Part shown: positions 22,597 through 56,940 of the stretch, in pieces | How positions within the stretch are numbered: the stretch's first letter is position 1 | Layout: the number at the start of each line of letters is the position of its first letter | DNA from: an uncultured Candidatus Saccharibacteria bacterium | Lineage (GTDB): Bacteria > Patescibacteriota > Andersenbacteria > UBA10190 | NCBI GenBank assembly: GCA_964371255.1 | Contig: CAYJKV010000001.1 | Coordinates: forward strand, 163,140 to 227,139 | DNA length: 64,000 nucleotides | Reading direction: 5' to 3' | Position numbers and translations under genes: made by a program | Notes under the pieces: generated by a model | Told to the model about the DNA's origin: nothing | Databases searched by the model: none | Seen by the model: only the letters and a program-made list of their open reading frames with translations

Positions 22597-23361
22597 ATGA
22601 GTGAAGTATTGGCGGTGACTAATCAAAAAGGGGGAGTAGGCAAAACGACCACCAGTATAAATTTGGGCAGTTACTTGGCGGCGGCAGGAGCTAAGGTGGC
22701 AATTATAGACTTGGACCCGCAGGCCAATGCCACATCAGGTCTGGGGATTAAGGTCACGGAGGAGACACCAACATTATACGAGGTGCTGACAGGCCAAGTG
22801 GATGCGACTAAAGCTTTGCAGGCGACCGATCATGATAATTTGAACATTATTCCGTCAAACACTAATTTGGCTGGAGCAGCGATTGAATTGATGGACAAGC
22901 CTTATCGGGAGTACAGATTGCGCCGGGCCGTAAGAGCCCTGAAGGAATATTATGATTTTATTTTAATTGATTGCCCGCCCAGTTTGGGATTATTAACGAT
23001 TAACGGTTTAGTGGCGGCAGATCGTTTGCTGATACCGGTCCAGTGTGAATTTTTTGCAGTGGAAGGCCTGAGCCAGTTGCTGGAAACAGTGGAGTTGGTC
23101 CGGGCTCACTTGAATCCCCGGCTGCAAGTATTGGGAGCGCTGCTGACTATGTATGATCGAAGAACGGCTATGGCGCGAAAAATTGTTAAGCAAGTGCGCC
23201 AGACCTTTCCGGGCCATGTGTTCGAAAGTGTCATACCGAGAAATACCGAGCTGGCGGAGGCGCCAAGTAAAGGCCGGTCTATTTTAGGTTATGCTAAGTA
23301 TTCGAGAGGGGCGAAAGCTTATGAATTTTTATCCGCTGAACTAATTAATCTATATAAATGA
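22597..23361 (+). CDS. parA: Chromosome partitioning ATPase ParA/Soj
   Basis: Deviant Walker A KGGVGKTTT with ParA-family architecture. Stop overlaps the parB start (ATGA). Confidence 0.9.
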   Translation: MSEVLAVTNQKGGVGKTTTSINLGSYLAAAGAKVAIIDLDPQANATSGLGIKVTEETPTLYEVLTGQVDATKALQATDHDNLNIIPSNTNLAGAAIELMDKPYREYRLRRAVRALKEYYDFILIDCPPSLGLLTINGLVAADRLLIPVQCEFFAVEGLSQLLETVELVRAHLNPRLQVLGALLTMYDRRTAMARKIVKQVRQTFPGHVFESVIPRNTELAEAPSKGRSILGYAKYSRGAKAYEFLSAELINLYK

Positions 23362-24761
23362 TGAAAAATGTATTTCGAGGGGGATTAAGATCATTAATAC
23401 CTAACCGTAAGGTGCAGGACGCTGATGAAGTGTTAGATGAATTAGAAGAAGATGAATTGGACCAAGAAGAGGAAACCGAAGAAGCAAAACCACGACGTAA
23501 GCTGCCAATTCAAGTGGAAGGTGAGCAAGGGGATGATGAAGAGATGACACAAGAGCAACCGATGGAAAAGCCTGGCGGCGGGCAGGAAGATGAAGAATTA
23601 TGGCAGGCGCCTGCCGCACCGAAGGTAACGCCGCTACGGATCGATTTTGATGACGATGAAGGGCCTGATCTGAGATTGCAACAAAAAAAGACTCGGCCTG
23701 CCAGTGCGCCAGTACCGGTAAAGCAAAAAGAAACCATAGCTAAAAAGGAAGAACTGGTCAGGGAGAAGAAGCCAGCAGCGGAAAATAAAACAGTAGAGCT
23801 GGAACAGGAAGTGAAGCGAGACGAAAAAGAGGCAACGGTAAACGTCAATCCACCAGTGAGTGTGGCAGCAAAACCGACCAGTGGAAATATTTGGGATAAA
23901 CACGAGGGAGATGTACAACACGTGAAAGTGGATGAAATTGGGATAAATCCGAACCAGCCGCGTCGCCAGTTTGATAAAGTCGATATGGGAGAGTTGAAAA
24001 GCTCGATTGCCCAACACGGCATATTGCAGCCGTTAGTGGTGCGACGCACGGAGGATGGATTTGAATTGGTGGCGGGAGAGCGGCGCCTGCGCGCGGCCAG
24101 GGATTTGGGTTGGGAAAAAGTACCGTGTGTGATCAGACGGGACGTGACCTCCGGGGCATCACGTTTAGAATTGGCGTTAATTGAGAATATTCAAAGAGAA
24201 GACTTGAATCCGGTGGAAGAAGCGTTGGCATACAAGCAACTCAATGAAGAATACGGGATGACGCATGAAGAGATTGGCGAGCGAGTGGGGCGGAGCCGAG
24301 TCGGCATAACTAATATTATTAGGGTGCTGCAGCTGCCGGAAGAAATACAGCGCGGGCTAATTGACAACAAGATCTCGCCGGGACATGCCAAGGCGATTTT
24401 GATGATACCGGACGAAGAAAAACAATTGCGCTTCTATCGGCACTTAGTGGAGGAAGGACTGACGGTTCGCAAGGCGGAAACCCGAGCCCGCCGGATCCAG
24501 CGAACGATGCGATTGGATGATCCAATGCGTCGGAAGCGCAAGGGCAGGACCGCGTTTGAGATGAAGTACAGCGGTGTGTTAGAAGACCGGTATGGTTTTG
24601 ATGCCAAGGTGCGGTTTGATGAGCACAAAAATCGTTATGAAGTAGTATTTCGATGCTTCAATAAGGATGAGATAGATCAGCTGCTTGGCCGTTTAACGGG
24701 AACAGAGTCGCTGCCAGAAGAAAGCCAAGATAAAGACGTGATTGAGGCAGACGAAGACTAG
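23358..24761 (+). CDS. parB: Chromosome partitioning protein ParB/Spo0J with an unusually long acidic/Lys-rich N-terminal extension (about 200 aa)
   Basis: ParB box GERRLRAAR, an HTH, and a C-terminal dimerisation region. The N-terminus is low-complexity D/E/K-rich. Confidence 0.88.
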   Translation: MMKNVFRGGLRSLIPNRKVQDADEVLDELEEDELDQEEETEEAKPRRKLPIQVEGEQGDDEEMTQEQPMEKPGGGQEDEELWQAPAAPKVTPLRIDFDDDEGPDLRLQQKKTRPASAPVPVKQKETIAKKEELVREKKPAAENKTVELEQEVKRDEKEATVNVNPPVSVAAKPTSGNIWDKHEGDVQHVKVDEIGINPNQPRRQFDKVDMGELKSSIAQHGILQPLVVRRTEDGFELVAGERRLRAARDLGWEKVPCVIRRDVTSGASRLELALIENIQREDLNPVEEALAYKQLNEEYGMTHEEIGERVGRSRVGITNIIRVLQLPEEIQRGLIDNKISPGHAKAILMIPDEEKQLRFYRHLVEEGLTVRKAETRARRIQRTMRLDDPMRRKRKGRTAFEMKYSGVLEDRYGFDAKVRFDEHKNRYEVVFRCFNKDEIDQLLGRLTGTESLPEESQDKDVIEADED

Positions 24762-25761: not shown

Positions 25762-27999
25762 TTAGTCTGGAGCCGGGGCGGTGTAGCTGCATTCTTTATT
25801 GGAGCAGCGGACAGTATTTTTCGCGGCAAAAACGACCAGACTTTGGCACATCGGACACTTGTCGCCAGTTGGTTTGCTCCAGTAGGCATTCTCGCATTTG
25901 GGGTATTGGTTGCAGGCGTAGAAAACCCGGCCGCGTTTGGATTTTTTCTCGACGATGTCGCCTTCATTACATTTAGGACATTTTACACCGACGGTCTTTT
26001 CAATTTTCTTAATAAATTTGCAGTCGGGATAACCGGAGCAGCCCATAAACGGTCCGAAGCGGCCGCGCTTAAGAGTCAAGGGTTTGCCACAATCAGGACA
26101 GGTTTCTTTAGCGGCTAGTTGCTCCAATTCTTTATCCGGTCCGATGTTCTCGGTGAATTTACAGTCAGGATAATTGCTGCACGCTTTGAATTTACCGAAG
26201 CGTCCCAGTTTGATAACTAATTCATTCTGGCATTTAGGACATGACTCGCCGGTTTTTTCCTGGGTTAGTTCATCCTTATTGAGTTCTTTTTGTTTCTGCT
26301 TGATGGTCTTATGAAATGGTCCGTAGAATTCTTTAATAATTGGCTGCCATTTCTTTTTACCGGAGGCGATTTGATCTAAATCGGCTTCAACAAGAGCGGT
26401 AAAGTCAGTATCCACGATGGTGGGGAAATGATCTTTTAATAAATTAGTGACCAGTGTACCGATTTCGGTGGGTTCTAATCTTTTCGCGTCATTTTTTTGT
26501 ACGTACTCTCTTTTTTGAACGGTATCGATGGTGGGGGCATAGGTGCTTGGCCGGCCAATACCAAAGTGTTCCAATGCTTTAACGAGGGTGGCTTCCGAGT
26601 AGCGGGCGGGCGGCTCCGTAAAGTGTTGCTCGGGTGCGAGCTTGAGGAAATCCAGTTGATCTTTAGCGGCTAGCGCGGGCAGCAAGGCTTCCTTAAAGTA
26701 AGCTTTGTCCTGAGAGAAAGCACGGGTATAGCCGGGGAAAGCGATAGTGGTGCCAATAGCTTTAAATTGAAATGAGTGGTTGTCAGTCTGTTTAGCAGGA
26801 ACTGCGTCAATTAAAGCCGTGACCATTTTTAGTTTGGCATCAGCCATTTGGCTGGCAATCATGCGCTCCCAGATTAACCGATATAGTTTTAGTTGATCGG
26901 GAGAGAGATAGGCGGTGATTTGCTCCGGCAGGCGGGACGGTTTGGTGGGACGGATTGCCTCATGCGCTTCCTGCGCGCCCTTGGACTTGTTTTTGAATTT
27001 GCGAGCCTCCGGTAGAGCAAAGTCTGGTCCAAAATTTTGCGTGATAACGTCATGGGCTTGTTTTGTTGCCTCATCGGCGAGGCTGACAGAGTCAGTACGC
27101 ATATAAGTAATCAAACCGACGGGACCTTTGGCTCCGAGTTCGATACCTTCATATAACTGCTGGGCTAACATCATGGTTTTTTTACTGGAAAAACCAAGTT
27201 TACTAAAGGCTGTTTGCTGCAGCGTACTGGTGGTGAAAGGGGGCGGAGCAGATCGTTTCTTATCGGTCGTCGCAACATCGTTCACAATGTAGGCGGCTGA
27301 GCCGAGTGCTTTTAAGATGGTGTCCACTTCCGTTTTGGACTTAAGGTCCTTCTTGGCCACTTTTTGGCCGTTATTAATAAATATTTCGGCGGTAAAGGGT
27401 GTATCGTTCTTGGATAAATGAGCAGTCAAAGACCAATACTCTTCAGGTTTGAAAGCATTGATTTCTTCTTCGCGTTCGACGATCAAGCGGACCGCGACGG
27501 ATTGCACACGCCCAGCGGAAAGACCGCGACGGATTTTTTTCCAGAGCAGGGGGGAAAGTTCGTAACCAACTAGCCGATCTAGAATGCGGCGGGCTTGCTG
27601 CGCGTCCACCAAATTCTGATCGATGGAGCGGGGATTAGTAATGGCTTTTTGAATAGCCGACTTAGTAATTTCATCGAAAGTGATGCGTTGGCAGGTGGCG
27701 GGATCGGCGCCAAGAATGTTAGCCAGATGCCAGGCAATGGCTTCTCCTTCACGATCTTCGTCAGTGGCGAAGTAAATCTCGGCAGCGTGCTTGGCAGATT
27801 TTTTTAACGCCGCGACGTTTTTTTTCGCTTTGTCTGGAATAACATAGGTGGGCAAGAAGTTCTTTTTTGTATCGACGCCGAGTTTGCTTTTAGGCAGATC
27901 GCGGATATGGCCGTAACTGCTGGTTACCTTATATCCAGTGCCTAGATATTTCTGAATTGTTTTCGCTTTGGCCGGTGACTCGACAATGACTAATTTCAT
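25762..27999 (-). CDS. topA: DNA topoisomerase I with C-terminal Cys4 zinc-ribbon repeats
   Basis: TOPRIM N-terminus (MKLVIVESPAKAKTI), the catalytic Tyr region, and three C-terminal CxxC...CxxC zinc ribbons. Confidence 0.95.
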   Translation of the reverse strand: MKLVIVESPAKAKTIQKYLGTGYKVTSSYGHIRDLPKSKLGVDTKKNFLPTYVIPDKAKKNVAALKKSAKHAAEIYFATDEDREGEAIAWHLANILGADPATCQRITFDEITKSAIQKAITNPRSIDQNLVDAQQARRILDRLVGYELSPLLWKKIRRGLSAGRVQSVAVRLIVEREEEINAFKPEEYWSLTAHLSKNDTPFTAEIFINNGQKVAKKDLKSKTEVDTILKALGSAAYIVNDVATTDKKRSAPPPFTTSTLQQTAFSKLGFSSKKTMMLAQQLYEGIELGAKGPVGLITYMRTDSVSLADEATKQAHDVITQNFGPDFALPEARKFKNKSKGAQEAHEAIRPTKPSRLPEQITAYLSPDQLKLYRLIWERMIASQMADAKLKMVTALIDAVPAKQTDNHSFQFKAIGTTIAFPGYTRAFSQDKAYFKEALLPALAAKDQLDFLKLAPEQHFTEPPARYSEATLVKALEHFGIGRPSTYAPTIDTVQKREYVQKNDAKRLEPTEIGTLVTNLLKDHFPTIVDTDFTALVEADLDQIASGKKKWQPIIKEFYGPFHKTIKQKQKELNKDELTQEKTGESCPKCQNELVIKLGRFGKFKACSNYPDCKFTENIGPDKELEQLAAKETCPDCGKPLTLKRGRFGPFMGCSGYPDCKFIKKIEKTVGVKCPKCNEGDIVEKKSKRGRVFYACNQYPKCENAYWSKPTGDKCPMCQSLVVFAAKNTVRCSNKECSYTAPAPD

Positions 28000-28150
28000 A
28001 AATTAAAAAAAATAGAAGGGACCGGGTGAAGTGCAATATAAATTAATCAATATTTGAATAGTATAGCGTATTGATATATGTAAATGGTATCTGGTGTCAA
28101 ATAGGAAATGAAAAAGTCAAAATCCAAATTATGAATATGTAGTTCTGAAT

Positions 28151-28182
28151 AACATTACGATATTATGTAATATCGTAATGTT
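28151..28182. promoter_or_regulatory. 12-6-12 palindrome ACATTACGATAT-TATGTA-ATATCGTAATGT, copy A, between the dprA stop and topA start
   Basis: Read directly from the sequence. Perfect 12 bp inverted arms with an asymmetric 6 bp spacer. Confidence 0.7.
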
Positions 28183-28215
28183 ATGAGAAAAGAATTGGCA
28201 TAATTTTAACCGGTT

Positions 28216-28247
28216 ATTATTACGATATTATGTAATATCATAATAAT
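28216..28247. promoter_or_regulatory. Same palindrome, copy B (variant ...ATATCATAATAAT), 65 bp from copy A, same orientation
   Basis: Core TTACGATATTATGTAATATC(A)TAA is identical apart from one position. Confidence 0.65.
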
Positions 28248-28299
28248 CAGATAACAAGAAGCGGATTGGTAAATCGATGGATCAACTTTGAGCGGATGG

Positions 28300-29175
28300 T
28301 CATTTTTTCACATATTTCATGCCGCCGAGGTTGTCGACGGCGTCGATCAATTCTAGTTCGGTTAAGGTGACTGACAGGATGGGCGAGGGTAGACGGGTGA
28401 TAGATACTAACTGATCGACATGCAGAGGGGTGGAGGATAGAGCGGCCATGACAATTTTTTGCTGGTCGGTGAGAGTGGCTGCTAAAACGTGGTTTGCAGT
28501 GGCGACGACTGGATCAATGTTAAGCAGTGCGAAAACATCTTCGGCAGTCAGTAGGGGTGTGGCGCCTTGTTGTATAAGTTGATTTGTGCCGGCTGATAAT
28601 AAGTCTGTAATATTGCCGGGGATGGCAGCAACATCTCGACCGTATTCCAGCGCGAGACGGGCGGTGATAAGCGAGCCGGAGCGGGCGGCGGCTTGAACGA
28701 CTAACGTGGCCATCGTCAGACCGGCGATGATGCGGTTGCGAGCGGGGAAATGAAATTGCAGCGGGGCTGTGCCGGCAGGAAATTCTGAAATTATCACTCC
28801 GCCGTGGTCGATTATGGCGTTGGCGAGCTTCACATGGAGTCGAGGGTAAATTGAAGCATCGTCAATACCGGAGCCTAATACCGCAATAGTTGGCGTGTTA
28901 TTAGCGAGACACAAATTGTGGGCAATAGAATCGATGCCGTAGGCTAAACCGGAAACAAGCGGCACACCGTTTTTAACTAAAGGGGTTAACAGGCGCTCGA
29001 TGGCTTGTTTGCCATAGAAAGATGATTTACGACTGCCGACGACGGCGAGTAGGGGAGAAGCATTAAGAATGGCGGCGTTGCCTCGATAAAAAAGTGGAGT
29101 TGGCGGGTCGGAAATTTCATTCAGCAGGGCGGGGTAGAGAGGACTGTCGAGGGTAAGTGTCTGGATGTCGGACAT
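28300..29175 (-). CDS. dprA: DNA processing protein DprA (Smf)
   Basis: Rossmann-like DprA core (LLAVVGSRKSSFYGKQAIERL...GLAYGIDSIAH). Sits immediately upstream of topA, the conserved smf-topA arrangement. Confidence 0.88.
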   Translation of the reverse strand: MSDIQTLTLDSPLYPALLNEISDPPTPLFYRGNAAILNASPLLAVVGSRKSSFYGKQAIERLLTPLVKNGVPLVSGLAYGIDSIAHNLCLANNTPTIAVLGSGIDDASIYPRLHVKLANAIIDHGGVIISEFPAGTAPLQFHFPARNRIIAGLTMATLVVQAAARSGSLITARLALEYGRDVAAIPGNITDLLSAGTNQLIQQGATPLLTAEDVFALLNIDPVVATANHVLAATLTDQQKIVMAALSSTPLHVDQLVSITRLPSPILSVTLTELELIDAVDNLGGMKYVKK

Positions 29176-43282: not shown

Positions 43283-43500
43283 CGCGAAGTTAGAAAAATT
43301 TAGTTAAAATAGTTTTATGTACACAATATGTGTGCATATTGTTTATTGACATAGTTTAATGATGCTTTACTCTGTTCTTGATGAGCACGGTTTGCGCAAA
43401 TATGAAAAATATCAGTGATAGCGACCGGGATATTTGCGATCAGGAAGTTTTTAGGAATTATTAACCAGTCAGTATATTAATAAATTTGACTAAAGATTAG

Positions 43501-52968: not shown

Positions 52969-53000
52969 AATATTACGATATTACATAATGTCGTAATATT
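52969..53000. promoter_or_regulatory. Same palindrome, copy C (opposite spacer orientation, one mismatch), in the tgt / yerC-like divergent promoter region
   Basis: AATATTACGATAT-TACATA-ATGTCGTAATATT, about 45 bp upstream of the regulator start codon. Confidence 0.7.
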
Positions 53001-53044
53001 ATTTAGGCAGGGAACAAGCGGTTTAATAAAGAAGGAGGTGTTAA

Positions 53045-53503
53045 ATGATGGGCAGATTTGATTATCGAGGATTGTCTGCCGAGAAGCGGCGCGAGTTTTT
53101 GGATAGGCTGGCTGATATAGTCGCGCACATTCGAAAAAAGGAAGAAGCACGATTTTTTCTTGAGAGACTTTTAACAGAAAGTGAAGTGGTGATGCTAATG
53201 CGCCGGTTGGAAGTGGCCGAACTGCTGCTGGACGGATTAACGTATGAAAAGATCAGGCGTAAATTGGGCGTGGGAACGTCAACGATTTATATCGTTGATA
53301 AGTGGCTGACTGAAGCAGCCTATGAATACAGAGAGATACGAGCGTATCAGAGAAGGATAGGCAAAGATGCCAAGCGAGCCAGAGAAAGAGACAGTAAACG
53401 CGCAAAGGGGCATGTGGAATCGACGATGCCTGGAACATTAAGGCAGATGATTCGTCATGATGCACGATTTATCCTGTTTCGTTTGCTGTTGGGCAATGTT
53501 TAG
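53045..53503 (+). CDS. TrpR-like YerC/YecD family DNA-binding regulator
   Basis: LTESEVVMLMRRLEVAELLLDGLTYEKIRRKLGVGTSTIYIV is the YerC/YecD TrpR-like HTH. The gene is flanked on both sides by the 12-6-12 palindrome. Confidence 0.8.
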   Translation: MMGRFDYRGLSAEKRREFLDRLADIVAHIRKKEEARFFLERLLTESEVVMLMRRLEVAELLLDGLTYEKIRRKLGVGTSTIYIVDKWLTEAAYEYREIRAYQRRIGKDAKRARERDSKRAKGHVESTMPGTLRQMIRHDARFILFRLLLGNV

Positions 53504-53572
53504 ATCGGAACCGAAGGAGTGTGACGCGGTCAGGAGATTTATATAAGTGGATTGATGGGGGGTGATGATTTA

Positions 53573-53604
53573 CATTACGATATTATGTAATATCGTAATA
53601 TGTG
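53573..53604. promoter_or_regulatory. Same palindrome, copy D (exact match to copy A), 70 bp downstream of the yerC-like regulator stop
   Basis: ACATTACGATATTATGTAATATCGTAATAT. Confidence 0.7.
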
Positions 53605-53712
53605 ATTTGGGGGTAATGTGTGGTTTGCGGGTGAATGGGGCGAGAGGCTGGTGAGGAGAGGGGCGGGTGAGGGCAGGGGGACGCAGAAATATTATTAAAA
53701 ATATTCATTGGT

Positions 53713-54003
53713 TTATTGATGGGCTGATGGCGAGATGGTTTGCTCGTAGTCGGGAAAGTAGGTACTGATCAGCGAGAGGTTAAACTTGGGCAGAATTGAT
53801 TGTTTGGATTCGCGTTTGAGGAGAAAGGCGAAGGATTTTTGAATTAGCTCATCGGGTGTAATGGTACCGGCCGTTAATTTTTGCCAGTATTTTTTATCTA
53901 AGGTGACGGTGTGCGAGGTGGTGTCGGGGTCGGTGCCTAGATCGACGTGGAATTGCCAACTGTCATTAGTTTTAGCCAGTTCTTCGATGTGTATTTTCTC
54001 CAT
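53713..54003 (-). CDS. Small hypothetical protein
   Basis: About 96 aa ORF from MEKIHIEELAK, with no motif recognised. Confidence 0.4.
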   Translation of the reverse strand: MEKIHIEELAKTNDSWQFHVDLGTDPDTTSHTVTLDKKYWQKLTAGTITPDELIQKSFAFLLKRESKQSILPKFNLSLISTYFPDYEQTISPSAHQ

Positions 54004-54077
54004 ATGGCAGGTTGATAAAGTGGTATTTACGCGGTACAAGTATATCACAGCACCTTTTAATTAAGGGCAAAATGATG

Positions 54078-54294: not shown

Positions 54295-54528
54295 AATAAA
54301 CGTCCATTATAGAATGGTGCGGCTTTTGTCCCTAAATTATATACATCGAATATTTGTTACACTTTAAACAAAATTTCAACTGCCTTCACTGATAAGCCTG
54401 TCGTCGTTATTTTTTTGATAAAAGTTGAAATTGAAGTGATTTTGTTTTTGAACGAAAAAGCCTAGATAAAATGTTATTTATTTACTGCAATAAGGATAGA
54501 ATGATTGTATAATTTATGTTTGAGATTG

Positions 54529-56940
54529 ATGGACAGTATTATGAATGATAAAAATGCTATGCCGATGAATGAGCTGCGCGGTAAGAAGATTTTACTGGTG
54601 AATACTGGATCGGTAAAAAAGCGTTTTGTTTTACAAAAGCTAAAAAAGTTAGGCCTGGTGGTAGTAGTGTTGAACAAGGAAAAGAATTGGGCACAAGCTT
54701 ATATTGATGATTGGATTATCGCCGACACAGGAAATTTCAAAGAGTGTATTCAGGCTGTGCGTGAATACATGAAGAATAATCCGGCAAGTTTGTTTGATGC
54801 GGCAATAACTTTTTGGGAAGACGATGTCCTATTAACCAGTAAGATTACAGATTCGTTCAATCTGGTCGGTATACCATATAGGGTTGCACAAAAAGCGCGA
54901 AACAAATTTGTGTTTAGGGAATTTTGCGAACTGAACGGCATACGCGCGCCCCAGCACGCTTTGTTAAAATCGACTGAAGATTGCAAACGGGTGACACAGA
55001 GTTTCCATTTTCCACTGGTGGTCAAACCAGTATATGGCGCTTCGAGCGCATACGTTGTCAAAGTAGACGATGAAGATGATCTCTATAATACCTTTGAGTA
55101 CATACGGAAGAATATGTCCACCGAAATTGAATCGGCTTTAGCCAATGGGCGGGATATATTAGTGGAGGAATATATTGACGGCAACGAAGTGGACGTAGAT
55201 ATCCTATTGCAGAACGGAAAAGTGAAGTTTTACTCCATTACTGATAATTTCCAAACAAGGGAACCATTTTTTGTGGAAACGGGAGACGCTATACCTTCCA
55301 GCTTGCCGGCTTGGGAGCAGCATAAGTTAGTAGAACTCGCGGAAGAGGTTCTGGAAAAGTTAGCCATCCAGAATGGGTGCATTCATTTTGAAGCCAAAGC
55401 CGCGAAAGACGGACCGGTACCGATCGAAGTGAACTTACGGATGGGTGGAGATTATGTTTATTCGTTTATCAAGGGAGTTTGGGGTGTGGACTTAATTGAG
55501 AACGCCGTAAAAATTGCCTGTGGGATATATATCAGTCACATACCAAAGCCGGAGAGACCGCTGAAGTTCTTGGCCGGAAAATATTTCTTACCGGATAATT
55601 CTGGAATTCTGGCAAAGCTTGATATTAATGAGAAGATGAAAAATGATTATCACTTGGAAGAAGTGAATCTCAACAAGAAGATTGGCGATCCAATTCTAGT
55701 GCCACCGGAGGGATATGAGTTTCTCGGGTGGCTGACGGTAGCCGGAGAGAATGCAATTGATACCCAGGACAATATCAGGGACCTGAGTAAAAATGTGACT
55801 TTTGAGGTGGCGCGATTTGACCGTGATTCTTTTATTGGTAAAACCTCGCGAAAGAACAGATTTTCAGCGGCTAGGTTGAATAAAGACAGTCTGCTGCGCG
55901 CGTTTAAAAAAGAGAATATCAAGCGAATATCGATATCTGATCTGCGCAGTCTGAATATTGGTATAGCTTATAACAGTGATGGGGAAGGGGGTAACCAATC
56001 GGCAGAAAAACCAGCCGGAGCGGCTCAGATGATGGAGCAGACATTGAAAGAACTGGGTTATAAGACAAGTGTGTTTGATTACAATGTGCTGGCGGATGTG
56101 TTTGAAGCGTTGCGTATCAGTGAGGTTAATCTGGTGATCAATGCCGGAGCGCGGGTGCTGGATTCAGAATATGGAGAAGTGCACGCAGCTGCCTTGTTGG
56201 ACATGCTGGATATTCCATATACAGGGCCGAACCCGACAACCCTAGGCGTGTGTCGTGACCTAACGCGAATAAAAAAACTGCTGCAGTTTCATAGCATACC
56301 GACGCCTAAATGGGATTATGTTTATGAGCTGGATGATGAGATACGGGAAGACTTAAAGTTTCCATTAATTGTTAAACCGATGTATGAGGGGGGGCCGATT
56401 AAAATTGGGCAGCAATCGGTAGTAACGGATAAACAGATGCTGCAGGAGGCATTGAATGTATACATCAAAAAATTTAATATACCTGCGATTATTGAAGAAT
56501 TTATTGACGGCGATGAATACCAGGTGGTGATATTGGGTAATGAAAATAACGTGCGGGCACTGCCGCTATCGCGCTTAATTTTTCAAGAACAACCGGTAGG
56601 CGTCTGGCCCATTCATGTCCAGGGAAACGGGGGGATTGAGATAGAAACGAACGATGTCTTAATACAACATCCGCCTAGGAACATTCCTAAAAAACTTGAG
56701 TCCCTCATTACCGAAATGGCGCTCGATACATATAATATTTTGGAAGGCTCTGATTTAGGCCAGGTTAAAATCCGGGTAGATAAAGACCTTAATCCTCATA
56801 TCATTTGCTTTGATCCGCTACCATCTCTGCATCCGCAAGGAGGGGTGGCTGGTGCGGCGGCGGTAAGTGGCATTAGCTATAGCGAGTTGTTAGAAGAGAT
56901 TGTGCGCATTGCGATTACGCGATACAAAAACGAAGAATGA
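54529..56940 (+). CDS. Tandem ATP-grasp ligase (N-terminal ATP-grasp module plus C-terminal D-Ala-D-Ala-ligase-like module)
   Basis: First half: FPLVVKPVYGASSAYVVKV...EEYIDGNEVDVDIL. Second half: Ddl-like (EYGEVHAAALLDMLDIPYTGPNP...FPLIVKPMYEGGPIKIG...EEFIDGDEYQVVIL). The track start is TTG at 54505. The first ATG downstream of a TATAAT is 54529, and 54541 or 54565 are alternatives. Confidence 0.75.
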   Translation: MDSIMNDKNAMPMNELRGKKILLVNTGSVKKRFVLQKLKKLGLVVVVLNKEKNWAQAYIDDWIIADTGNFKECIQAVREYMKNNPASLFDAAITFWEDDVLLTSKITDSFNLVGIPYRVAQKARNKFVFREFCELNGIRAPQHALLKSTEDCKRVTQSFHFPLVVKPVYGASSAYVVKVDDEDDLYNTFEYIRKNMSTEIESALANGRDILVEEYIDGNEVDVDILLQNGKVKFYSITDNFQTREPFFVETGDAIPSSLPAWEQHKLVELAEEVLEKLAIQNGCIHFEAKAAKDGPVPIEVNLRMGGDYVYSFIKGVWGVDLIENAVKIACGIYISHIPKPERPLKFLAGKYFLPDNSGILAKLDINEKMKNDYHLEEVNLNKKIGDPILVPPEGYEFLGWLTVAGENAIDTQDNIRDLSKNVTFEVARFDRDSFIGKTSRKNRFSAARLNKDSLLRAFKKENIKRISISDLRSLNIGIAYNSDGEGGNQSAEKPAGAAQMMEQTLKELGYKTSVFDYNVLADVFEALRISEVNLVINAGARVLDSEYGEVHAAALLDMLDIPYTGPNPTTLGVCRDLTRIKKLLQFHSIPTPKWDYVYELDDEIREDLKFPLIVKPMYEGGPIKIGQQSVVTDKQMLQEALNVYIKKFNIPAIIEEFIDGDEYQVVILGNENNVRALPLSRLIFQEQPVGVWPIHVQGNGGIEIETNDVLIQHPPRNIPKKLESLITEMALDTYNILEGSDLGQVKIRVDKDLNPHIICFDPLPSLHPQGGVAGAAAVSGISYSELLEEIVRIAITRYKNEE

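Follow-up and report, generated by a model that had tools for sequence, protein, structure and literature searches.

The 64,000-nt stretch analyzed here ('the window' below; contig CAYJKV010000001.1 of an uncultured Candidatus Saccharibacteria bacterium, placed in Andersenbacteria by GTDB) carries two copies of a 26-bp palindrome in the spacer between dprA and topA. These two copies are probably high-affinity sites of a TrpR-like regulator encoded in the same window. Comparison among genomes suggests that the protein and its palindrome form a pair co-diversifying in Andersenbacteria, a lineage of the Candidate Phyla Radiation (CPR), and that the sites near topA are lineage-specific. The elements concerned are the following (positions are those of the window).

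25762-27999, minus strand: topA, 745 aa, with Toprim, Topoisom_bac and three zinc ribbons (Pfam)
28154-28179, strandless: palindrome copy proximal to topA, ATTACGATATTATGTAATATCGTAAT, centred ~100 bp before the putative topA start
28219-28244, strandless: palindrome copy distal to topA, ATTACGATATTATGTAATATCATAAT, with one mismatch (it ends with ...ATCATAAT), 56 nt downstream of the dprA stop codon
28300-29175, minus strand: dprA, 291 aa, with DNA_processg_A and DprA_WH (Pfam)
52972-52997, strandless: palindrome upstream of the regulator gene, with the centre inverted (TACATA) and one mismatch, 47 nt before the ATG, in the divergent spacer between tgt and the regulator gene
53045-53503, plus strand: gene of a TrpR/YerC-family helix-turn-helix (HTH) protein of 152 aa (PF01371, TIGR02531), 25 kb from the topA pair
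53574-53599, strandless: perfect palindrome downstream of the regulator gene, 70 nt after its stop codon

The dprA-topA spacer extends over 300 bp from the dprA stop (28300, minus strand) to the topA start (27999, minus strand), and its A+T content is 72% versus 53% for the window as a whole. The two palindromes are separated by 65 bp, measured either start to start or centre to centre, which corresponds to 6.2 helical turns; the distal copy is centred ~165 bp before the putative topA start. The initial annotation, made from the letters of the window, had described two tandem sites ~six turns apart in an AT-rich spacer, and this description is confirmed. The site was given there as '12-6-12'; the palindrome is real, but its unit is a 12-2-12 arrangement of 26 bp with the core CGATAT-N6-ATATCG. 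In the proximal copy the symmetry extends outward to make a perfect 17-2-17 palindrome at 28149-28184. Sequence likeness among the copies ends at the 26-bp edges, and an extended element resembling a miniature inverted-repeat transposable element was rejected on this ground.

At a threshold of three mismatches the window contains exactly four sites, the two in the spacer (28154-28179 and 28219-28244) and the two on either side of the regulator gene (52972-52997 and 53574-53599). No match at this threshold arose in 100 dinucleotide-preserving shuffles of the window. Weaker versions, with 2-8 mismatches, do not occur in the 64 kb.

The presence of a TrpR-like gene 25 kb from the pair, as initially annotated, is supported by matches of its product to PF01371 (Trp_repressor, 49.6 bits with cut-off 27) and to TIGR02531 (YerC/YecD, NCBIfam, 44.3 bits with cut-off 42.2). 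The score against TIGR01321, the family of true TrpR, was 24.7, under the cut-off of 67.25; the protein is thus no equivalog of TrpR. Trp_repressor and HTH_23 were the only Pfam domains detected, with neither a Y1 (HUH) transposase nor any catalytic domain. A profile made of 35 homologues matches PDB entries 3FRW, 3KOR and 3G1C. The AlphaFold2 model (mean predicted local distance difference test score of 78.6; 84-95 over residues 11-90) shows a TrpR fold, with 3KOR, 3FRW, 3G1C and 1TRR (E. coli TrpR) as the top PDB matches in Foldseek (probability 1.00). In the model the recognition helix runs on into a long basic helix (residues 78-121), and a C-terminal motif (P129, D139, R141 and L148-L149-G150) is conserved; classical TrpR and HisR have neither feature.

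A profile search produced 488 clusters (at 50% identity) with E<1e-10; among the matches listed most proteins have 130-170 aa. The closest homologues of the regulator come from Candidatus Andersenbacteria. Searches of phages, plasmids and IMG/VR with the regulator protein returned weak generic YerC-like matches only. Identical proteins in other assemblies lie in loci that are all 100% identical to the window, and gave no alternative context. The small open reading frames (ORFs) adjoining regulator genes have no homology to each other across loci; a conserved partner gene is thus lacking.

The link between palindrome and regulator was assessed by comparing DNA around regulator homologues with 36-68% identity, nine loci in all with the window included. 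In 9/9 loci a lineage-specific 26-bp palindrome is present on both sides of the regulator gene. The arms vary from lineage to lineage (ATTACGATAT, TACTCGATAT, CCCTCGATAT, ACTCCTATAT, ACTACGATAT, ACTACTACAT, ACATCGACGC and ACTTCAATAT are examples), and the architecture is constant. The palindromes are as follows.

Window: ATTACGATATTAYRTAATRTCGTAAT
L001: TACTCGATATAACGTTATATGGAGTA, two copies upstream and one downstream
L002/L012: CCCTCGATATTACGTAATATCGAGGG
L004: ACTCCTATATTTTGAAATATAGGAGT
L018: ACTACGATATTACGTAATATCGTAGT
L114: ACTACTACATTACGTAATGTAGTAGT
L115: CTTCCACATTACGTAATATAGGAGTA
L116: ACATCGACGCGTCAACGCGTCGATGT, two copies upstream and one downstream
L117: ACTTCAATATTTTAAAATATTGAAGT, with the arm ACTTCAATAT...

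The genome DATDVI01 contains two paralogues, at loci L012 and L116, and each has a palindrome of its own. Arms are wholly changed between relatives that are 50-68% identical. The TrpR/HisR family is known to bind lineage-specific palindromes, with a site often located before the regulator's own gene and with frequent autoregulation (PMC9413887). In view of the co-variation among lineages and of the published HisR/TrpR palindromes we take the TrpR-like protein to be the probable cognate binder of the palindrome, an assignment that is well supported by comparative sequence data. The initial annotation had already attributed the palindrome to this regulator, and the flanking of the gene in the window and in all nine loci upholds that attribution.

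The upstream palindrome is 11-83 nt from the start codon over the nine loci (11-47 nt in eight of them). In several lineages a −10-like hexamer, sometimes of the extended −10 type, is located 11-17 nt past the palindrome edge, and some regulator messages appear to be leaderless. The pattern TANNNT at 13-16 nt from the palindrome edge was observed in 14 of 68 flanks, with ~5 expected from other offsets. The position of the hexamer and the enrichment of TANNNT place the site roughly over the −35 element of the regulator's own promoter.

Copies dispersed elsewhere were sought by a core-pattern scan with one genome per species. The Andersenbacteria genome DATDVI01 has at least 10 near-identical copies adjoining glycosyltransferase genes, gatB/dcd, prfA, genes for an HhH-GPD glycosylase and an IMPase, and genes of unknown function; none of the DATDVI01 copies has topA as a neighbour. 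Two exact copies are present in the sister genome MHHQ01, and topA is next to neither. A HisR regulon does not emerge from these contexts: the neighbours of the sites are topA, dprA, tgt, glycosyltransferase genes, gatB/dcd, prfA, HhH-GPD glycosylase and IMPase genes and fmt, and no his or trp gene was found among them. Several copies are located directly after stop codons or in convergent spacers, and many are within 35 nt of a stop codon.

Some copies come in doublets, with spacings of 65, 91, 52 (two different palindromes) and 448 bp. As the doublet spacing is not conserved, there is no sign of a spacing selected for cooperativity, and the earlier proposal that the 65-bp distance suits cooperative binding or looping gains no support from it. 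The doublet with the 52-bp spacing (start to start) occurs at 2729-2806 of L010 (DATDVI010000021.1), where palindromes of both paralogues stand next to each other upstream of a gene encoding 436 aa with no Pfam match. In L009 two copies 595 bp apart surround an unrelated small ORF, and in L116 the order is site, 88-aa ORF, site, regulator gene, site. Where the palindrome is imperfect, as in L001 and in L115, all copies share one and the same imperfection, which points to copying or gene conversion.

One copy in the genome CAYSID01 (L008, 4315-4340 of CAYSID010000016.1) matches the regulator palindrome of this genome perfectly and is located within fmt, where it encodes TTILRNIVV in a variable linker of the protein. 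An 81%-identical relative (L118, 115-140) has at this place a homologous non-palindromic fmt sequence of equal length with differences at 6 of 26 positions. In-frame insertion of a palindrome into fmt was rejected on this evidence; the fmt site appears to have been written into, or kept in, an existing coding sequence.

A working model can be outlined as follows. A dimer of the regulator would bind each symmetric site, and its conserved C-terminal helices, together with the long basic helix, may mediate higher oligomers. Each lineage, or each paralogue, keeps its own palindrome nearly identical at all copies. The upstream site at the regulator's own gene would cover the −35 region approximately or touch the gene start, so that the regulator should autoregulate. 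At the topA sites, located at about −100 and −165, the most that bound protein could do would be to modulate topA from upstream or to hinder transcription running on from dprA.

Several observations weigh against a reading of the palindromes as ordinary regulatory sites. Copies are either near-perfect or absent, with no intermediates (2-8 mismatches in the window, 3-8 in DATDVI), a pattern that an ordinary regulon would not usually show. The genes adjoining the sites share no function and vary between lineages; some copies stand between convergent genes or right after stop codons, and one, as described, is part of the fmt coding sequence. The downstream copy, present at every regulator gene, has no obvious role in simple autoregulation. 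The presence or absence of a 602-bp segment with the gene between repeats (see below) suggests recombination at the site. The 26-bp palindrome is also longer than the 20-bp operators of HisR and TrpR, and binding of the palindrome by the regulator is deduced from comparison.

The relation of the pair to topA was analyzed by comparison with relatives. In a metagenome scan with TopA the matches listed had at most 57% identity, and the spacers were compared via individual TopA homologues instead. Two elements are located between the pair and the gene.

28073-28100, minus strand: putative topA core promoter, TTGACA (28100-28095), N16, TATATC (28078-28073), assigned by consensus and conservation
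28046-28075, minus strand: inverted repeat ATCAATA-N16-TATTGAT, within a 35-nt block identical in the window and L101

The palindromes precede the putative −35 element by 53 and 118 bp, and there is no third palindrome at the promoter itself; a TAAAAT hexamer occurs on the topA strand 10 nt past the distal palindrome. In the nearest relative (L101, TopA 92% identical) the dprA-topA order is kept, and the spacer has 402 bp and no palindrome. Homology between the two spacers starts at 28108, ~108 bp upstream of the topA ATG and 8 bp upstream of the −35 element; both palindromes are therefore in the variable distal part of the spacer. The 35-nt block upstream of topA is identical in the window and L101, while the coding DNA is only ~82% identical. 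The block at 28046-28100 with its inverted repeat is a candidate for the genuine conserved topA promoter/operator, a control element or a 5′ untranslated region (leader) element. More distant relatives, L102/L103 (TopA 75% identical) and L104/L105 (72%), have spacers of 258 and 114 bp with a TTGACG-N16-TATAAC element. The palindrome was sought in the dprA-topA spacers of L101 to L105 and was absent from all of them, at the orthologous position as elsewhere. The pair thus appears to be a recent lineage-specific acquisition and not a conserved topA operator.

The initial annotation had concluded that expression of topA is tied to the regulator. This conclusion is not sustained by the comparison, as the sites are distal to the conserved promoter, are missing in L101-L105 and, in DATDVI01, are not near topA. 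Since the sites are outside the conserved promoter and are not conserved, regulation of topA is only a possibility: the link would be confined to one lineage and the position is atypical for a TrpR-type repressor, and some effect on topA may exist.

The surroundings of the regulator gene differ in every lineage, and in one case the gene itself is missing. The difference concerns the following segment.

52972-53573, plus strand: 602-bp segment comprising one palindrome, the regulator gene and the 3′ spacer, absent at the syntenic MHHQ01000015.1 locus

At the tgt/tRNA-Pro locus of MHHQ01000015.1, where the proteins are 66-91% identical to those of the window, a single palindrome and no regulator gene are found; the indel is clean and bounded by the repeat. 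It could be a trace of site-specific insertion or excision, or of deletion between the 26-bp repeats; deletion explains this single case equally well. The GC skew of the 602-bp segment is the same as that of the surroundings, and as a possible sign of recent insertion it was uninformative.

Directly past the downstream palindrome, at 53600-53700, there is an extremely G-rich non-coding tract (GC skew 0.75, with GGGG runs) that is partly absent at the MHHQ locus. The next ORF (53713-54048, minus strand, 111 aa, no Pfam match) has a counterpart in L004 (45% identity), and the syntenic MHHQ locus retains it at the level of DNA; it is probably a real gene convergent with the regulator gene, which would place the downstream palindrome between convergent genes.

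With these data the alternatives to a regulator-site pair can be weighed. It seems rather unlikely to us that the TrpR-like protein controls the topA promoter from these two sites as a tandem operator, whether it binds them cooperatively or forms a loop. The arrangement itself is suggestive, with two sites 6.2 turns apart in an AT-rich spacer upstream of topA, with the same palindrome in the promoter region of the regulator's own gene and with the TAAAAT hexamer on the topA strand beyond the distal site; KorB of IncP plasmids also has near-identical multi-copy operators and acts at a distance. Nevertheless, the position of both sites upstream of the conserved −35 element with no third site at the promoter, the lack of palindromes in the spacers of the three groups of TopA relatives, the absence of topA next to any DATDVI01 copy and the variable spacing of doublets all argue against it. 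Still less probable is a role of the palindromes as protein-independent RNA hairpins, which would serve as a terminator, stabilizer or processing signal at the 3′ end of dprA or in a long topA leader. Each copy does fold into a hairpin of 14-17 bp (−12 to −19 kcal/mol, z of −3.9 to −8.3), many copies are close to stop codons, and the mismatches in both imperfect window copies would make G-U pairs in the sense transcript. Such energies are, however, trivial for any palindrome; the stems are A+T-rich and have no T-run, a terminator scan of 27900-28400 was empty, and Rfam and tRNA scans detected no RNA family overlapping the palindromes. The mismatches in other lineages are G-G, A-A, T-T or G-A and not wobble pairs, so that the wobble pattern is mixed overall. 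Moreover, the sequence itself, beyond the structure, is identical within a genome and co-varies with a DNA-binding protein, and copies are present in divergent promoter regions as well. We give equally little credence to sites of chromosome organization or replication comparable to parS/ParB, matS/MatP or Ter/Tus-RTP, with a small dimeric protein, ~10 near-perfect sites and no transcriptional purpose. The bimodal distribution of copies, their presence in convergent spacers and within a coding region, the location of the gene next to its own sites, the predicted long helix and C-terminal helices that could bridge sites and the proximity of topA to parAB would all fit. On the other side, parS and matS do not share the very rapid change of site sequence from lineage to lineage, most solo sites are placed where a promoter could be and have the −10-like hexamer enriched beside them, and perfect symmetry is ill-suited to polar fork arrest.

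A more serious competitor, though still one that we consider unlikely, is that the palindrome is a site of recombination or copying for a small element, either cassette-like or comparable to REP (repetitive extragenic palindromic) sequences. The TrpR-like gene with one palindrome would then enter and leave at resident palindromes, much as integron cassettes or pdif modules do, with the protein as the site-recognition component; solo copies, the topA pair included, would be dispersed copies or landing sites and not evolved operators. The clean 602-bp indel (palindrome-gene-palindrome in the window, a single palindrome in MHHQ) speaks for such movement, as do the different neighbourhood of the regulator gene in each lineage, where the gene is always tightly flanked by copies, and the arrangements seen in L116 and in L009. 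The near-identity of copies per genome without intermediates, the shared imperfection in L001 and L115 and the existence of two orthogonal systems within one genome can be counted on the same side, and the 10-6-10 layout of the palindrome is similar to the core sites of tyrosine recombinases. The protein, on the other hand, has a TrpR fold with additional helices and lacks a catalytic domain, a scan of 20 window ORFs gave no recombinase, and relatives are missing from phages, plasmids and IMG/VR contigs. The indel could equally be a deletion between two 26-bp repeats, the copy within fmt is homologous to the sequence of a relative and was not inserted, the copy number is low and the GC skew of the cassette is that of its surroundings. 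A specific form of this idea would make the TrpR-like gene and its palindrome a self-bracketing cassette-like CPR module that is gained and lost by recombination, with sites homogenized by copying or gene conversion, with site and specificity co-diversifying after the fashion of REP/RAYT or pdif modules, with a non-catalytic HTH protein that recognizes the site and with the topA pair as a dispersed doublet; this form we regard as doubtful.

The regulator-site pair, which we favour, has parallels as well as differences in known systems. HisR (YerC) and TrpR belong to the same family (PF01371), share the fold and use palindromic operators, often upstream of the regulator gene, whose half-sites stand ~6 nt apart and whose consensus depends on the lineage (PMC9413887). 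These proteins have <100 aa, whereas the CPR protein has ~150 aa with the long basic helix and the conserved C-terminal motif; their operators are of 20 bp, whereas the CPR site has 26 bp and a second copy is always present downstream of the gene. The CPR pair differs from them also in that the sites are near-identical within a genome, the arms differ between relatives and no his or trp genes adjoin the sites. REP sequences and their associated tyrosine transposases (RAYT) are similar in having a single-copy gene flanked by a short palindrome, intergenic dispersal of the palindrome, paralogue-specific families and doublets. The present protein is instead a TrpR-like HTH protein without HUH/Y1 motifs, and the copies number about ten versus tens to hundreds.

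Integron attC cassettes and Xer pdif modules likewise have a small gene tightly bounded by sites of ~26-28 bp with inverted arms and a 6-bp centre. Occupied and empty sites that differ by exactly one unit (the window versus MHHQ) and an array-like arrangement (L116) add to this likeness. Here, however, no linked integrase or Xer gene was found among the 20 window ORFs scanned, the arms co-vary with the cargo protein and not with a host recombinase, and some sites are perfectly symmetric. KorB and its OB operators in IncP plasmids, as well as ParB/parS, resemble the present case in having about a dozen near-identical palindromes per protein, some at promoters and some distant; the protein fold is unrelated, and nothing here points to partition or to sliding dependent on cytidine triphosphate.

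What is new, as far as the comparison of loci indicates, is the behaviour of an extended TrpR/YerC subfamily specific to CPR bacteria, in which the gene is self-bracketed, protein and site diversify together quickly, dispersed copies are near-identical and one indel is cassette-like. Literature searches retrieved the paper on HisR/TrpR operators and no description of the CPR subfamily or of gene-bracketing palindromes. Two-sided sites, quick turnover of specificity, orthogonal paralogue systems and near-identical sites per genome are unusual traits. Almost nothing is known about transcription factors of CPR bacteria and their cis-elements, and the pair described here is a concrete candidate for a protein with its site. 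If true, the link to topA would mean that control of DNA supercoiling is coupled to the regulator in one lineage; the comparative data, in which this link is not conserved, caution against over-reading a motif match in a single genome. The cassette-like reading, if true, would mean that a novel type of small module, mobile or recombining, exists.

Other features of the window may be mentioned. In the ftsA-ftsZ spacer (43320-43345) there is a separate palindrome, ACAATATG-TGTG-CATATTGT, directly before a TTGACA. Its layout, xxATAT...ATATxx, recalls regulator palindromes of other lineages, e.g. that of L117 (ACTTCAATAT), and it could serve another TrpR-like paralogue or some other factor. The topA gene adjoins parA-parB both in the window and in relatives; the ParB homologue (23358-24761, 467 aa) has the ParB_N domain from residue 186, preceded by a long N-terminal extension with no family match. 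The ORF at 54505-56940 encodes an 811-aa fusion of a module similar to ATP-grasp/L-amino-acid ligases with a C-terminal domain of D-Ala-D-Ala ligase. The GC skew of the plus strand is strongly positive throughout the window, with a mean of 0.23 (576-nt windows) and with all 2-kb bins between 0.12 and 0.33. It remains positive over genes of the minus strand, with values of 0.13 for topA, 0.27 for dprA, 0.22 for mfd and 0.14 for tgt; the strand bias is unusually strong, and the window seems to be entirely within one replichore.

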